In this document: piece after piece, positions 4,982 through 54,561 of the stretch
How the letters are laid out: each line of letters begins with the position of its first letter
Numbering within the stretch: position 1 is the stretch's first letter
NCBI GenBank assembly: GCA_964635905.1
Contig: CAZWPK010000004.1
Location: 91,012 to 145,841, forward strand
Direction of reading: 5' to 3'
DNA length: 54,830 nt
Origin: an uncultured Pseudomonadales bacterium
GTDB taxonomy: Bacteria; Patescibacteriota; Microgenomatia; UBA1400; UBA12028
The notes under the pieces: generated by a model
What the model was told of the DNA's origin: nothing
Databases searched by the model: none
What the model saw: the letters and a program-made list of their open reading frames with translations, nothing else
Translations under genes and position numbers: made by a program

Positions 4982-6504
4982 TTTAAGACAAGTGGGTCTT
5001 TGAGCAGGGTATCAAAGGGTTCTTTTAGCCTGTACATCTTCACTTTTTCTTCATCAATCCATAAGTTCAAGAAAATAATTCTGACAATTTGGTCTTTGAC
5101 TTCGGGTGTGCCTGCTTTGACAGATAATCCAGCGTTTTTAGACAAGTTCAAGAAGTCTTCCAGCGTTAACACGTCCTGTTCTAGGTCAGGCATGGCTTCC
5201 TTGAGTTTGGTGATTTCTGCCTCCAGTTGGGACTTTTGATTGTCCAGTTCTTTCACTCGTTCCTCACCAATCTTTCTGACTGTCGAGCCTATTTCCTGCT
5301 TGATGACTTGGAGAGCGGTTGTTCGCAACTCATTGTCAGTAGCTTTCAGGTGTCCTTGCTTGGAGTGCAGTTCAACCTCAAGTTTGGCTTTCTGCTTAGT
5401 TAGCACGTCAGTCATTTCTTGCAGGTAAATTTGATAATCTTCCTCAGTGAAGTTGAGTCCATCCTTGAGAAACTCATACAACCAATCAAGCACAACTTTC
5501 ACTCTGACTGATTTCTTAGCTCGTTTGCACCCTGTGGTTTCACACCTGAAGTTAAGATACCGTTTGCCACTCCCACCAGTGGATGGACCAACAGTCATAT
5601 TGCCATCACAAAACGAACATTTTACAAAGGACTTAAAGGGGTAAAAAGTATAGCGGTGAGTGTTAATTGGCATCAGTCGAGTTCTAGTTTGGGTTTGGAT
5701 TTGGTAAAACTCTTCCTCACTGACCGCAGGTACAAAGTCATACTTGGTACGCAAATCAATCTGGTCATCAGCTTGTACCAATACACCAAAGTAAAACGAA
5801 TCTCGGAAGATGATACTCAAGATACGCTTGTCCATGTTCACTTTGCGTCCTGTAGCTTTAATCAAGCGGTGGTAGCCAAGAGAGTTGATTGTTTGGGCAA
5901 TTTTTTCCAGTGACTCACCTTTAAGCTTCATCTGCCATGCTTCCTTGATAAGTTCATGGTTATTACCATCAGGTTGATATCTACCAAACTCATCAATCAC
6001 ATATCCATGTTTAGGAATGTGACTCCTGCCTTCACTAGCTTTTCTGACCATCCCACGAGTCACGTCAGCAGAGAGTTTGTCTGAGTATTGTTTGGAAAGC
6101 ACAAAAGCAAGTCCCAGCATCATCAAACCATTTGCATCTCGAGTGAAGTGGTGAGTAACAAACTTTAAGTCCTTGATGATGTCCTCATCAATCATATCAA
6201 TGACTTCGCCACCTTCTTTCATGTTGCGAGCAAGGCGGTCAGGATTCCAGCACAGAATCCCATCGTATTTACCAACCTGAATATCTTTGAGCATCTGCCG
6301 AAAAACAGGTCTTTTACCAGGTTTCTTAGCGGACTTCTGTTCTGTCAGTGGAGAGCCAACAATGGTCAAATTGAGGCGTTTAGCAAGCTGGAGACACTCG
6401 GCTATTTGGTCAGGAATAGACCGAGCTTGACGCTCTGGGTCATCGGTAGATTTGCGAGCGTAGAGGACATATTTGAGCTTGGTGTGGTCAACTTCATACT
6501 CCAT
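4924..6504 (-). CDS. large serine recombinase 1 (526 aa in integrated state; last codons read antisense through tRNA-Pro)
   Basis: Resolvase catalytic YARKST..RQ..SI..Q, DRLARN, recombinase domain, Zn ribbon CSFC...CETTGC, coiled coil; ATG at 6504 matches paralog start. Confidence 0.95.
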   Translation of the reverse strand: MEYEVDHTKLKYVLYARKSTDDPERQARSIPDQIAECLQLAKRLNLTIVGSPLTEQKSAKKPGKRPVFRQMLKDIQVGKYDGILCWNPDRLARNMKEGGEVIDMIDEDIIKDLKFVTHHFTRDANGLMMLGLAFVLSKQYSDKLSADVTRGMVRKASEGRSHIPKHGYVIDEFGRYQPDGNNHELIKEAWQMKLKGESLEKIAQTINSLGYHRLIKATGRKVNMDKRILSIIFRDSFYFGVLVQADDQIDLRTKYDFVPAVSEEEFYQIQTQTRTRLMPINTHRYTFYPFKSFVKCSFCDGNMTVGPSTGGSGKRYLNFRCETTGCKRAKKSVRVKVVLDWLYEFLKDGLNFTEEDYQIYLQEMTDVLTKQKAKLEVELHSKQGHLKATDNELRTTALQVIKQEIGSTVRKIGEERVKELDNQKSQLEAEITKLKEAMPDLEQDVLTLEDFLNLSKNAGLSVKAGTPEVKDQIVRIIFLNLWIDEEKVKMYRLKEPFDTLLKDPLVLNGRGAQTRTGDLLLPKQAL

Positions 6505-48122: not shown

Positions 48123-48302
48123 CTATTGGCGATTGCCTTTTTGCACATACCAAATGCTTTCAGAATTATCTTCTGTTTCCATTCGGAATAAAGTATTTCC
48201 GTCAATCTGTAGAACTTTTGGCATTTCACCCGTTATCGCACTCTCTCTAGCAGCTTGAATCCAAGCTTCATTTTGTTTTTTATATGGAGTTAAATTTTCC
48301 AT
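48123..48302 (-). CDS. hypothetical protein (59 aa), first gene behind the attenuator
   Basis: AGAAAGGA ribosome-binding site before ATG 48302. Confidence 0.55.
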   Translation of the reverse strand: MENLTPYKKQNEAWIQAARESAITGEMPKVLQIDGNTLFRMETEDNSESIWYVQKGNRQ

Positions 48303-48320
48303 ATTTTCCTTTCTCACAAC

Positions 48321-48347
48321 AAAAAACCCCCGGTTTTTAAGCGGGGG
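48321..48347 (-). terminator. intrinsic terminator/attenuator upstream of the 59-aa gene
   Basis: Minus strand CCCCCG-CTTAAAAAC-CGGGGG-TTTTTT. Confidence 0.85.
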
Positions 48348-48375
48348 TGTTGTGTTTTTAATTAATGTTACTTCA

Positions 48376-48447
48376 TTACTCCACACAAACCCCCAGTCCG
48401 CGAAGGACAGTGAGAGTGTTAATGGTAATGACGTGTTGGTTCTGCAT
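48376..48447 (-). CDS. putative 23-aa attenuator leader peptide MQNQHVITINTLTVLRGLGVCVE
   Basis: ATG 12 nt after a consensus -10; stop about 28 nt before the terminator; covers a predicted antiterminator strand. Confidence 0.55.
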   Translation of the reverse strand: MQNQHVITINTLTVLRGLGVCVE

Positions 48448-48459
48448 AGAACAAGAGGA

Positions 48460-48510
48460 ATTATAGGAAACCAGAGTCCCATTGTCAATCAGGCGATCTT
48501 TGTTTACAAT
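48460..48510. promoter_or_regulatory. divergent sigma70-type promoters with overlapping -35 boxes
   Basis: Minus TTGACA(48488-48483)-17-TATAAT(48465-48460); plus TTGTCA(48482-48487)-17-TACAAT(48505-48510). Confidence 0.8.
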
Positions 48511-48524
48511 AAAGATACGTTTTT

Positions 48525-48668
48525 TTGCTACGGTAGGAGCTAAGGTGACGCTTAGTGAGTAGTAACGGGTAAGCCCGAAATCGCTGGAACAAGAAACACA
48601 AAGGTGGCACCTCTTTTGCAGAACCTGCAAAGACCTTGGATTCTCAGGGTAGAGAGGTGTCTTTTTTT
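48525..48668 (+). ncRNA. T-box riboswitch (Asp specifier) with transcriptional terminator, upstream of aspS
   Basis: Antiterminator AAGG-[TGGCACC]-TCTTTTGCA/TGCAAAGA-CCTT; terminator GGCACCTCTTT/AGAGAGGTGTC+T7; GAC at 48547-48549 in the loop of CTAAG/CTTAG. Confidence 0.88.
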
Positions 48669-48693
48669 ATACGTTGTGGGGTAAGGAGAAACT

Positions 48694-50094
48694 ATGGAAC
48701 GCACGCTGATTAAAGCTACAAGTTCACAAATTGGAACCGTGGTGACACTGATGGGATGGGTCGATACAAAACGTGATCATGGAAAACTAACCTTTATTGA
48801 TTTGCGTGATCGAACTGGAATGATTCAGTGTGTCGGCTATCAAATGATGGGAGAATTGAGTACAGAATCTGTTATTTCCTTGACCGGACTCATCAACGAA
48901 CGCGGAGAAAAGTACGTCAATCCCAACACTCCAACCGGGAAAATAGAAATCGAAGTGCAGTCGTATGAAGTGCTCAATAAAGCAAGTGAGCTCCCGTTGC
49001 ATGTGCAAGGCGATGGCTTGGATATCAACGAGGAACACCGATTGCGTTATCGCTACTTAGATATTCGTCGAGAACGCATGAGTACAACATTACGATTACG
49101 CTCCCAGTATTTCCATGCGCTACGACAAGCCTTGGTCCAAAAAGACTTCTGTGAGGTGGAAACTCCCATTCTCTCGAAAGCAACGATGGAAGGGGCGCGA
49201 GACTTTTTGGTCCCCAGTCGTTTTCAACCGGGGAAGTTCTACGCATTACCCCAAAGCCCACAGCAGTATAAACAGTTATTAATGGTCGGCGGAATTGAAC
49301 GCTATTTCCAGTTCGCTCGCTGTTTTAGAGATGAAGATTTGCGAGCTGATCGAGGATTTGAATTCACACAATTGGATTTGGAAATGAGCTTTGCCAGTCG
49401 GGAAGATGTCATGGAAACGGTAGAATCTGTGGTCAAGGATGCAGTAAGTGAAGTCGGTGGGAAGCTCAAAGATGCAACCTTTCCAATCTTTACCTATGAG
49501 CAAGCAATGAAGCAATTCGGGGCTGACAAATTTGACTTGCGCTCCGAGCAAGAGAAAAAAGATGGCGTCCTTGCCTTTGCCTGGGTGATTAACTTCCCAT
49601 TTTTCAAAAAGGTGGATAAGGGCGATGCGGCCGAAGTTCGTGATGGGAAAAGTGGCTGGACATTCACGCATAATCCCTTTAGCTCTCCGTTACCTGAACA
49701 CATGGAATGGCATCTTGGCGGCACCAATATCGACCAAATCTTGACGACCCAGTATGATTTGGTGTGTAACGGCTATGAAGCTGGTGGGGGAAGTATCCGT
49801 GCCCATCGTCCAGAGCTCTTAGAGGCTACGTATAAGATCATGGGATACACGCCGGAAGAAACAATCGCGAGTATCGGGCACATGTTGGAAGCCTTCTCCT
49901 TTGGCGCGCCCCCGCATGGAGGAATTGCCTTGGGCTTAGATCGACATGTCATGATCCTTTCTAAGCAGCAAGCCTTAAAGGAAGCAATTCCATTTCCAAT
50001 GTCATCAACTGGCAGAACTTCCATTATGGATGCGCCAGCGACAGTCAGTGCGGATCAACTCAAAGAATTAGGATTGAACGTATCTACGATCTAA
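48694..50094 (+). CDS. aspS: aspartate--tRNA ligase, short form without GAD insertion
   Basis: RDHGKLTFIDLRD, RLRYRYLDIR, GARDFLVPSR, LPQSPQQYKQLLM, FRDEDLRADR, PPHGGIALGLDR. Confidence 0.97.
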   Translation: MERTLIKATSSQIGTVVTLMGWVDTKRDHGKLTFIDLRDRTGMIQCVGYQMMGELSTESVISLTGLINERGEKYVNPNTPTGKIEIEVQSYEVLNKASELPLHVQGDGLDINEEHRLRYRYLDIRRERMSTTLRLRSQYFHALRQALVQKDFCEVETPILSKATMEGARDFLVPSRFQPGKFYALPQSPQQYKQLLMVGGIERYFQFARCFRDEDLRADRGFEFTQLDLEMSFASREDVMETVESVVKDAVSEVGGKLKDATFPIFTYEQAMKQFGADKFDLRSEQEKKDGVLAFAWVINFPFFKKVDKGDAAEVRDGKSGWTFTHNPFSSPLPEHMEWHLGGTNIDQILTTQYDLVCNGYEAGGGSIRAHRPELLEATYKIMGYTPEETIASIGHMLEAFSFGAPPHGGIALGLDRHVMILSKQQALKEAIPFPMSSTGRTSIMDAPATVSADQLKELGLNVSTI

Positions 50095-53124: not shown

Positions 53125-54561
53125 ATGACTGTTCGCACTCGAATTGCTCCCTCACCGACTGGTATCGCCCATATTGGCACTGCCTATATGGCGCTGTTTA
53201 ACTATGCCTTTGCTAAAAAACATGGGGGAGAGTTCATCATTCGGATCGAAGATACCGATCGAGCCCGTTTTGTGGATGGGGCTGAGGAAGTGATCTTTCA
53301 ATCCTTACAGTGGCTAGATATCCCGTATACCGAGGCTCCAACCATAGGTGGACCGTATGCACCATATCGACAGTCCGAGCGACTTCCCAAGTATAAAGCC
53401 GCTGCAGAAGAGCTGATAGAGAAGGGGCATGCCTATTATTGTTTTTGTTCTTCCGAAGAACTAGATCTCATGCGAAAAGAGCAGGTAGCACGGAAAGAAA
53501 TTCCCCGCTATGACCGACGGTGCACGAAATTATCTCCAGAGGAGATCCAAACACGTTTGGATCGGGGAGATAAGCACGTGATTCGGATGCGAATGCCAGA
53601 TCAAGAAGTGATTGCCTGGCAAGATCTTGTTCGAGGTACTGTCGAAATCAATACGAAGGAGTTGGACGATCAGGTTCTCATGAAGTCGGATGGATTTCCA
53701 ACCTATCATCTGGCGGTAGTCGTGGATGACAATGCCATGAAAATTAGTCACGTGATTCGTGGGGAAGAATGGATCAGTAGTACCCCAAAACATATTCTGC
53801 TCTATCGCTATTTTGGCTGGACCGCTCCGGAGTTTGCGCACATGCCATTGCTTCGAAACCCTGACAAAACCAAGATGAGTAAACGCAAAAATGATGTCTC
53901 GATTCCCTCGTATAAGGAAAAGGGATACCTTCCGTCAGCGCTTCGAAACTATCTATGTCTATTAGGCTGGTCTCATCCGGAAGAAAAAGATGTGTTTGAT
54001 TTGCCGGAATTCATCGAGAAGTTTACGACAGAGCGAATGGTAAAAAGTGGTCCCATCTTTGATACCAAAAAACTCCAGTGGATGAATGGAAAGTATATTC
54101 GAGAAAAGTTATCACTAGAAGAACTACTGTCAGCACTGCAGCCATTCCTGCCAGCTGATTATCCTAGTGATCTGTTACCACAAGTCCTTCCATTAGTCCG
54201 TGATCGTTTGGTTGTTTTAACCGATATTGGGCCATTAACAGAGTTTTTCTACAAAGACATCGCTCCAGCTGTTACTGATCTGGTTGGGAAGAAAGTAACA
54301 AAATCTGATGTCAGCGAATTCCTGTTACGCTGTAAAGAGAACTTGGAAGAAGTTGAAGTGCAGGACTGGAAAGCAGAGCAAATGGAAACATTGCTTCGCG
54401 ACTATTGTGACTCCAAGGAATGGAATCGTGGCGCTTTCTTTATGGCGCTTCGTGTCGGCGTCTCTGGAAGAACTACAACTCCACCATTGTTTGACATGAT
54501 TGAGGTACTTGGCAAAGAAAAAACCATCACCCGACTTTCCCAAACAATGAAGCTGCTCTAA
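53125..54561 (+). CDS. gltX: glutamate--tRNA ligase
   Basis: RIAPSPTG.AHIG, RIEDTD, YHLAVVVDD, IRGEEW, KMSKR. Confidence 0.98.
   Translation: MTVRTRIAPSPTGIAHIGTAYMALFNYAFAKKHGGEFIIRIEDTDRARFVDGAEEVIFQSLQWLDIPYTEAPTIGGPYAPYRQSERLPKYKAAAEELIEKGHAYYCFCSSEELDLMRKEQVARKEIPRYDRRCTKLSPEEIQTRLDRGDKHVIRMRMPDQEVIAWQDLVRGTVEINTKELDDQVLMKSDGFPTYHLAVVVDDNAMKISHVIRGEEWISSTPKHILLYRYFGWTAPEFAHMPLLRNPDKTKMSKRKNDVSIPSYKEKGYLPSALRNYLCLLGWSHPEEKDVFDLPEFIEKFTTERMVKSGPIFDTKKLQWMNGKYIREKLSLEELLSALQPFLPADYPSDLLPQVLPLVRDRLVVLTDIGPLTEFFYKDIAPAVTDLVGKKVTKSDVSEFLLRCKENLEEVEVQDWKAEQMETLLRDYCDSKEWNRGAFFMALRVGVSGRTTTPPLFDMIEVLGKEKTITRLSQTMKLL

Follow-up and report, generated by a model that had tools for sequence, protein, structure and literature searches.

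The 54.8-kb stretch of contig CAZWPK010000004.1 analysed here (the window) contains aspS, the gene for aspartyl-tRNA synthetase (AspRS), preceded by a structured leader that we suggest is, very probably, a tRNA-sensing T-box riboswitch controlling the gene by transcription attenuation. The open reading frame (ORF) downstream of the leader scores 573 bits against the NCBIfam aspS equivalog model (cut-off 443), and its product is a bacterial-type AspRS without the GAD insertion, comprising the Pfam tRNA-synt_2 and OB anticodon-binding domains. In a protein search, the closest AspRS (95% identity) belonged to a Candidatus Woesebacteria metagenome-assembled genome (MAG); the source is thus a member of the candidate phyla radiation (CPR), as a first-pass annotation made from the bare sequence had supposed.

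The features of the locus are collected in the table below. Transcription from the aspS promoter would start at about 48517, and the U-tract that ends the leader lies 26 nt before the aspS start. The promoter hexamers and their 17-nt spacing are kept upstream of aspS in five related loci (L164, L165, L167, L169, and L171) and, with TAAAAT as the −10 hexamer, in a sixth (L172), while the sequence of the spacer varies.

Features of the aspS locus, in coordinates of the window (MFE, minimum free energy; K-turn, kink-turn)
Feature	Position	Strand	Basis or detail
Promoter	48482-48510	+	Consensus scan, 10/12 matches; −35 TTGTCA 48482-87, 17-nt spacer, −10 TACAAT 48505-10
T-box leader, whole element	48525-48668	+	Direct reading of the sequence
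Stem I, ultrashort, 41 nt	48525-48565	+	MFE fold, covariation
Stem I basal helix UUGCUAC/GUAGUAA	48525-48531/48559-48565	+	MFE fold
Stem I internal loop	5-nt bulge 48532-36; tandem GA 48537-38 facing GA 48557-58	+	K-turn-like
Stem I upper helix GCUAAG/CUUAGU, 6 bp	48539-48544/48551-48556	+	
Apical hexaloop GUGACG	48545-48550	+	Putative specifier GAC (Asp codon) at 48547-48549
Hairpin CGGG-UAAG-CCCG	48566-48577	+	Contains IIA
Stem IIA/B-like pseudoknot	48566-48585	+	IIA 48566-68/48575-77; IIB loop AGC 48572-74 with GCU 48583-85
Purine-rich linker GGAACAAGAAACACA	48586-48600	+	Family consensus GGAAUAAGUA; no hairpin, hence no Stem III
Antiterminator	48601-48637	+	Direct reading; A1 AAGG 48601-04/CCUU 48634-37
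T-box bulge UGGCACC, 7 nt	48605-48611	+	
A2	48612-21/48625-33	+	
Intrinsic terminator	48606-48668	+	Outer stem 48606-16/48651-61; inner hairpins 48618-28 and 48634-49; U7 48662-68
Shine-Dalgarno (SD) AAGGAGA	48683-89	+	15 nt past the U-tract, outside the terminator and antiterminator folds
aspS ORF, 466 aa	48694-50094	+	ORF list

A leader family upstream of aspS

Since the Rfam T-box model does not report the site in the window, the evidence is drawn from its relatives. Two sets, each of 80 aspS loci with an AspRS related to that of the window, were collected from GTDB species genomes and metagenomes; the named records among them are nearly all Patescibacteria or uncultured MAGs. We added seven further loci whose AspRS is 77-95% identical to that of the window, which brings the total to about 170 (the L numbers used here). 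In about 30 of these, the motif UGGYACC precedes aspS, or a short operon with aspS as its last gene, by 40-250 nt. The sequence GGTGGCACC is found exactly once in the window.

A covariance model was seeded with L171, L167, L165, and L172 only, so that both the window and its nearest relative, L164, were left out. On the two strands of the window, the model gives a single match (48526-48638, 70.8 bits, E 1e-16); it also recovers L164, L169, and L166 and, more weakly, L032, L083, L085, L004, L084, L006, and L002. When ten sequences are aligned to the model, 92% of cells are paired (34-45% with slid 3′ partners) and 19 of the 27 pairs show compensatory changes on both sides (Stem I basal helix 6/6, Stem I upper helix 5/5, A1 3/5, and A2 5/5), although these counts come from an alignment fitted to the structure. 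For that reason, RNAalifold was run on a plain MAFFT alignment, where its prediction includes the upper helix of Stem I, the hairpin of IIA, and the outer stem of the terminator.

The comparison with L164, whose AspRS is the one with 95% identity, shows the same at short distance. The leaders differ at 10 of 144 positions and have a nucleotide identity of 93%, against 84% for the coding sequence (CDS). Five of the changes fall at paired sites and every one of them keeps the pair, with a full C-G to U-A compensation at 48531/48559 and a G-U that becomes G-C; the remaining five are confined to bulges, loops, and linkers. The pairing of the terminator inner hairpin is also kept.

The closest relatives (L164, L165, L166, L167/168, L169/170, L171, and L172) form a Woesebacteria-type subfamily with the same order of elements as the window: a promoter, a Stem I with a K-turn-like base and apical UGAC, CGGGUAWGCCCG directly after it, GCUGG, the nearly invariant GGAAUAAGUA linker, an antiterminator, and a terminator. 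A Stem III-like hairpin is inserted in the linker of L165 and L169 only and is not found in the window. The first-pass annotation had proposed an Asp T-box in which an ultrashort Stem I is coupled to a transcription terminator, and the comparative data (aspS downstream, covarying stems, and conserved terminators) agree with it. The same annotation saw an unusual hybrid class; the combination of ultrashort Stem I with a terminator is indeed there, but it is no one-off, as the comparison supports a family, spread over the aspS leaders of Patescibacteria, to which the window leader belongs. The fuller members (L086, L038, L024, and L099) have a Stem II with GAA/AGUA and a Stem III, both of which are missing from the Woesebacteria branch, and judged by sequence, the Patescibacteria aspS T-boxes look like a reduction series.

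Two further kinds of leader were observed. The smallest variant, in L058 (5850-5990), consists of a K-turn Stem I (AGCC-AUU-GA-UCCA-ACUGACAAC-UGGG-GA-GGCU), a 23-nt linker, and an antiterminator, without Stem II, IIA/B, or Stem III. In the Dojkabacteria-like L013 (~5830-5990) and L017 (~5850-6000), a hairpin with an 11-12-nt loop, AGAUAGUGAGAA, is followed by AGUAGAAGUGACAU; here GAC seems to come after an AGUA/GAA-like motif and to be single-stranded or part of an internal loop, and these leaders may represent an intermediate type of Stem I.

Stem I, the putative specifier triplet, and the proposed pseudoknot

The earlier description of Stem I, as a hairpin of about 40 nt with GAC in its apical loop and no distal T-loop module, proved accurate: the 6-bp upper helix is closed directly by the 6-nt loop, and a long Stem I with AG bay and distal loop is absent here, as it is in all close relatives. 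At the base of Stem I, GA faces GA beside the basal helix in the manner of a K-turn, with a bulge of 5 nt rather than 3 nt. The 3′ GA is kept in 8/8 close relatives and the 5′ GA in 7/8, and textbook K-turns are found at this place in L070 and L024 (GC-GAU-GA...GA-GC) and in L058 (AGCC-AUU-GA...GA-GGCU).

The first structure in T-box-bearing aspS leaders is a short hairpin that carries UGAC, then A or G, in its end loop. The stems all differ, and in the alignments the loop column shows UGAC throughout. The loop is GUGACG in the window, L164, L006, L166, and L167 (and within 8-nt loops in L169 and L171), CUGACAA in L020, L058, L085, L099, and L034, UUGACAA, UUGACAC, or UUGACAG in L002, L084, L083, and L004, CUGACAC in L032, L074, and L165, CUGACA in L086 and L104, and AUGACA in L038. 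Hairpins with TGAC[AG] in the loop (stem of at least 4 bp, loop of 6-9 nt) are present in 23 of 30 T-box-bearing aspS leaders against 6 among the 126 regions upstream of aspS that lack the T-box motif. The seven leaders without such a hairpin are three with AAC, two cut by a contig end, L172 (whose upper helix has only 2-3 bp), and L017 (which is ambiguous). In the three with AAC, this triplet replaces GAC at the equivalent loop position (L024: AUAACA, ~5784-5800; L065: GCAACAU, ~5527-5545; L070: AAAACA, ~200-216). The reading frame of the specifier is fixed by the fact that the triplet varies only between GAC and AAC, the codons of the two tRNAs that AspRS can charge. The AAC loops suggest that in these loci aspS is controlled by tRNA-Asn, as would be expected with a non-discriminating AspRS, and the hosts of the family probably use an enzyme of this kind. 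We note that the bulge reads UGGU in two of these three leaders.

The specifier loops of 6-7 nt resemble anticodon loops in their order of pyrimidine, U, triplet, and purine. Standard bacterial tRNA-Asp, such as that of Escherichia coli, has U33-G34-U35-C36-A37, to which the loop sequence UGAC plus a purine is complementary; the two loops may thus be able to pair over as many as 5 bp (nt 33-37 of tRNA-Asp). For the UGACG of the window, one of the five would be a G-U pair.

A different tRNA might be read instead: tRNA-Val or tRNA-Thr, as GUGACG also contains GUG and ACG, or tRNA-Asn through a non-discriminating AspRS. The Thr codon ACR (ACA or ACG) is kept in all loops, and sensing of tRNA-Asn would exist in the family, since L024, L065, and L070 carry AAC at the position of GAC. 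The window, however, has GAC and not AAC, and the Val codon GUG is absent from loops of the CUGACA type. The regulated gene is aspS in every case, and the triplet varies only between G and A at its first base, giving the codons of tRNAs that AspRS can charge. The antiterminator bulge adds to this: the discriminator of bacterial tRNA-Asp is G73, which would pair with the variable C of UGGC, and A73 is typical of tRNA-Val and tRNA-Thr, so that on general knowledge the C suits Asp and not the other two. We consider a tRNA other than tRNA-Asp to be unlikely.

The hairpin CGGG-UAAG-CCCG directly abuts Stem I (48565/48566), and neither the window nor L164-L172 has a Stem II between them. We suggest, with moderate confidence, that this hairpin and the downstream GCU form a Stem IIA/B pseudoknot. 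Rfam aligns the homologues of the hairpin in L024 and L045 to Stem IIA and the F-box of RF00230. Across the relatives, 84% of the IIA/B pairs are formed, compared with 21-45% for slid partners, and three pairs show double changes. Several IIB helices are longer or covary (L086: UGAGC/GCUCA; L099: UACGC/GCGUA; L024: GCGC/GCGC; L045: GAGC/GCUU; L002: GGC/GCC; L085: CCCAGCG/CGCGGG). The ileS T-box of Mycobacterium tuberculosis likewise has a 3-bp IIB, formed with the linker (PMC11297988). The linker that follows in our family contains GGAAUAAG, nearly invariant in two alignments.

Three other readings of this region were considered and rejected. The first-pass annotation had noted the CGGG-TAAG-CCCG stem, which is present, with AGTA/GAA-like flanks, which are coincidental: AGTA is part of the covarying Stem I basal helix, so the flanks do not make a Stem II S-turn. 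A three-way junction in which AGCUG/CAGCU encloses both hairpins (L004 and L083) is not conserved, and we explain the conserved GCU by IIB pseudoknot pairing instead. Lastly, the hairpin might have been the homologue of a second short hairpin (loop GGUNNNAA) seen in L002, L004, L032, and L006, with the upstream TTGTCAAT as the decayed remnant of a specifier loop. We rejected this because six closer relatives share TTGTCA-17-TACAAT as a promoter while its spacer sequence varies, because the closer relatives show a Stem I with a K-turn-like base and end-loop UGAC directly before IIA/B, and because the first hairpin of L006 has the identical loop GUGACG.

Antiterminator, terminator, and the proposed switch

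Downstream of the linker, the antiterminator with bulge UGGCACC is present in full, as first described, and its helices A1 and A2 covary in the relatives. The T-box motif forms the bulge between A1 and A2 in 22 of 24 leaders, parsed automatically or by eye, and the helix sequences differ from locus to locus. At the variable position of the bulge, 27 of 31 leaders have C and four (L065, L070, L166, and L169) have U.

The competing 11-bp terminator with U7 of the first-pass annotation is also there, but its form is other than a plain hairpin. It is a branched three-way junction, its 5′ strand is the T-box bulge itself together with the 5′ strand of A2, and it is the MFE structure of the full leader. 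Its outer stem pairs GGCACCUCUUU (48606-16) with AGAGAGGUGUC (48651-61) through 8 Watson-Crick and 3 G-U pairs, immediately followed by U7; one inner hairpin retains the tip of A2, and the other (48634-49) takes up the 3′ strand of A1. Automatic scanning for terminators misses it because the loop rule excludes branched stems. For the expression platform, the terminator has a computed energy of −24 kcal/mol and the antiterminator one of −8.6 kcal/mol; as the terminator is far the more stable, the default state would be OFF, as in T-boxes generally. A terminator of the window type (GGCACCU with AGGUGYC, then a U-run) also occurs in L164, L165, L167, L171, and L172, while other Patescibacteria leaders follow the canonical T-box arrangement, with a gap of 17-27 nt between the bulge and the start of the terminator. 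A hairpin with T4-8 follows the antiterminator in nearly all 31 leaders.

These observations bear on the suggestion that the element acts on translation or mRNA stability and that the “terminator” is merely an alternative sequestering fold. The known T-boxes with an ultrashort Stem I are all translational (bioRxiv 10.1101/2023.02.28.530422; PMC7583486), and the branching of the terminator could be taken the same way. Yet the alternative fold is an 11-bp stem directly before U7, and the hairpin and U-run are kept in nearly all 31 leaders despite their differing sequences. The SD, 15 nt downstream, pairs in neither fold and no anti-SD sequence is evident. We judge control of translation or stability to be very unlikely.

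We therefore return to transcription attenuation and propose the following sequence of events, in which tRNA binding, specificity for Asp, and termination in vivo are our reading of the structure. Transcription would begin at about 48517, and the nascent Stem I would expose GAC in its end loop to the anticodon of tRNA-Asp; the loop-loop complex could offset the missing elbow and S-turn contacts. The pseudoknot of the Stem IIA/B type would probably orient the linker and the discriminator. If the tRNA is uncharged, its G73-C-C-A 3′ end would pair with UGGC of the bulge and stabilise the weak A1/A2 antiterminator, allowing RNA polymerase to read through into aspS. If tRNA-Asp is charged or absent, the Y-shaped terminator would form and transcription would stop at U7. 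The terminator would thus sequester the acceptor-binding bulge directly, and its inner hairpin would capture the 3′ strand of A1.

Several points weigh against this interpretation. The element in the window has no distal T-loops, no Stem II S-turn, and no Stem III, and would have to reach sufficient affinity and speed without platform, S-turn, and Stem III; slow transcription or pausing in these organisms might make this possible. The terminator, being branched, is unusual among intrinsic terminators. The third IIB pair is lost (U-U) in five close relatives, and the pair counts of 92% and 19/27 are those of the fitted alignment. A search with the Rfam T-box model, which the first-pass annotation had proposed as a check, came out negative: RF00230 has no match in the window at its gathering threshold (93 bits), nor at E≤10 on 48300-48750 (451 nt). 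The same model does give sub-threshold matches of 27-31 bits, at the T-box position, in L058, L020, L024, and L045; in the last two, its alignment extends over the K-turn, Stem II (GAA/AGUA), Stem IIA with the F-box, and the T-box sequence. Finally, a search of the window and the approximately 170 fetched aspS loci found no gene for tRNA-Asp or tRNA-Asn; as no tRNA-Asp gene of a related lineage was found, the arguments from G73 and A37 rest on general knowledge.

A stronger claim is that, with a span of about 113 nt between the start of Stem I and the last base of the antiterminator, no natural transcriptional T-box is smaller, and that this one recognises its tRNA through an extended loop-loop complex without elbow contact, Stem II S-turn, or Stem III. 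On this our own opinion is evenly balanced.

We regard it as extremely improbable that the leader is instead a decaying relic of a fuller T-box, serving as a constitutive attenuator or plain 5′ untranslated region without tRNA binding: elements essential elsewhere are missing (PMC7583486, PMC11297988), L086, L038, L024, and L099 have fuller leaders that include Stem II (GAA/AGUA) and Stem III, and many Patescibacteria aspS genes have no T-box at all, but the reduced architecture is kept over 77-95% AspRS identity with compensatory changes in every helix, the UGAC loop, UGGYACC bulge, and GGAAUAAG linker are invariant, the leader evolves more slowly than the CDS, and an unrelieved terminator of −24 kcal/mol before an essential gene would be harmful.

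Neighbouring genes and comparison with known T-boxes

Within the window, aspS is the only one of the two aminoacyl-tRNA synthetase genes to be controlled in this way, since the family covariance model gives no second match there. The other, for glutamyl-tRNA synthetase (tRNA-synt_1c, 53125-54561), has a 65-nt upstream spacer without a T-box-like element. The −35 hexamer of the aspS promoter overlaps that of a perfect divergent promoter. This is of the sigma-70 type (minus strand, 48488..48460, TTGACA-17-TATAAT), has its −35 region in common with the aspS promoter, and leads into a leader of ~150 nt (region 48304-48488) ending in a strong terminator-like hairpin (ACACCCCCG...CGGGGGU with U6, 48352..48318) that just precedes the SD and ATG (~48303) of a ~60-aa ORF (MENLTPYKKQNEAW...). 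The blocks GUUCUAUGCAGAAC and CCUUCGCGGAC... of this minus-strand leader are conserved in L164, L165, L167, L169, and L171, and its Rfam matches are weak and terminator-driven only. It may be an undescribed attenuator or leader.

The genes that accompany aspS in the relatives vary. In L038 (5248-6000), a gene with an asparaginase domain (PF00710, 68 bits) lies between a family T-box, with loop AUGACA and bulge UGGCACA, and aspS. A signal of Asp starvation would here induce both the release of aspartate from asparagine and AspRS, and the gene order fits a signal of Asp limitation. Between T-box and aspS lie a gene for a peptidase C39-like protein in L070 (554-1144), an ORF of 152 aa with weak Pfam matches only that overlaps aspS in L166 (2722-3180), and a Cys-rich ORF of 51 aa in L065 (5791-5946). 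We also observed seven AspRS relatives (P0010, P0016, P0017, P0048, P0072, P0092, and P0120; 71-77% identity, ~620 aa) with an inserted PF04073, the YbaK/ProX-type aminoacyl-tRNA editing domain, a fusion that is unusual for AspRS.

Our search of the literature for T-boxes together with CPR, Patescibacteria, Saccharibacteria, Parcubacteria, Microgenomates, or Woesebacteria found no description, although its coverage is incomplete and an earlier one is possible. TBDB was built from Rfam hits and an Actinobacteria-only class II model (PMC7778990) and for this reason would have missed the Patescibacteria aspS leaders; Rfam-based surveys miss CPR T-boxes. The leaders would be among the first concrete cis-regulatory RNAs of Patescibacteria, whose gene regulation is almost unknown, and the relatives with an AAC specifier and the asparaginase-aspS operon tie the T-box family to the supply of Asp and Asn.

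The systems closest in Stem I are the ileS leaders of Actinobacteria (M. tuberculosis, Mycobacterium smegmatis, and Nocardia farcinica), which act on translation (bioRxiv 10.1101/2023.02.28.530422; PMC7583486); the first-pass annotation had placed ultrashort Stem I here and a long Stem I in transcriptional T-boxes as a rule, and the literature agrees. With this class, the window leader shares the short Stem I with the specifier in its terminal loop, the lack of a distal interdigitated T-loop platform, the UGGN bulge, and a Stem IIA/B pseudoknot in which about three loop bases pair with the linker (bioRxiv 10.1101/2023.02.28.530422; PMC11297988; PMC7583486). It differs in gene (aspS, not ileS), codon (GAC, where the class reads tRNA-Ile), and output (a terminator with U7 and a free SD, not SD sequestration). 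The ileS class has a Stem II S-turn that docks on the codon-anticodon helix, whereas the window has neither Stem II nor Stem III, and the host belongs to Patescibacteria and not to Actinobacteria. In previous work, transcriptional T-boxes needed the distal T-loops, the Stem II S-turn was essential in ultrashort ileS T-boxes, and Stem III was also important (PMC7583486, PMC11297988). The combination of an ultrashort Stem I with transcription attenuation, tRNA-Asp, and a CPR host is supported by our data, and its parts have so far been described only separately. A conserved family of this kind challenges the view that transcriptional T-boxes need a long Stem I platform for fast capture of the tRNA, and equally the view of ultrashort Stem I as translational, confined to ileS and Actinobacteria, and dependent on Stem II.

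The canonical RF00230 T-box (for example, Bacillus subtilis tyrS) and the window leader have in common a T-box sequence whose 7-nt bulge separates helices A1 and A2, a terminator that excludes the antiterminator and makes OFF the default, a codon matching the amino acid of the synthetase, and Stem IIA/B; the tandem GA of the leader resembles the GA-type (K-turn) motif at the foot of the canonical Stem I. The leader has no long Stem I, AG bay, distal loop, internal Specifier Loop S-turn, Stem II, or Stem III, and the 5′ strand of its terminator is the bulge with the A2 5′ strand, whereas in canonical T-boxes it is the 3′ half of the antiterminator. The glyQS-type T-box, the minimal transcriptional class, is likewise transcriptional and without Stem II. 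However, glyQS keeps the elbow platform of a long Stem I and Stem III and has no IIA/B, while the window leader is the reverse, with IIA/B only. If the ~113-nt reading is true, the distal T-loop platform would be no general requirement for co-transcriptional tRNA sensing, and Patescibacteria would hold graded T-box reductions from full to minimal, including aspS variants that read tRNA-Asn. The family would offer a natural minimal tRNA sensor for structural, kinetic, and engineering work.

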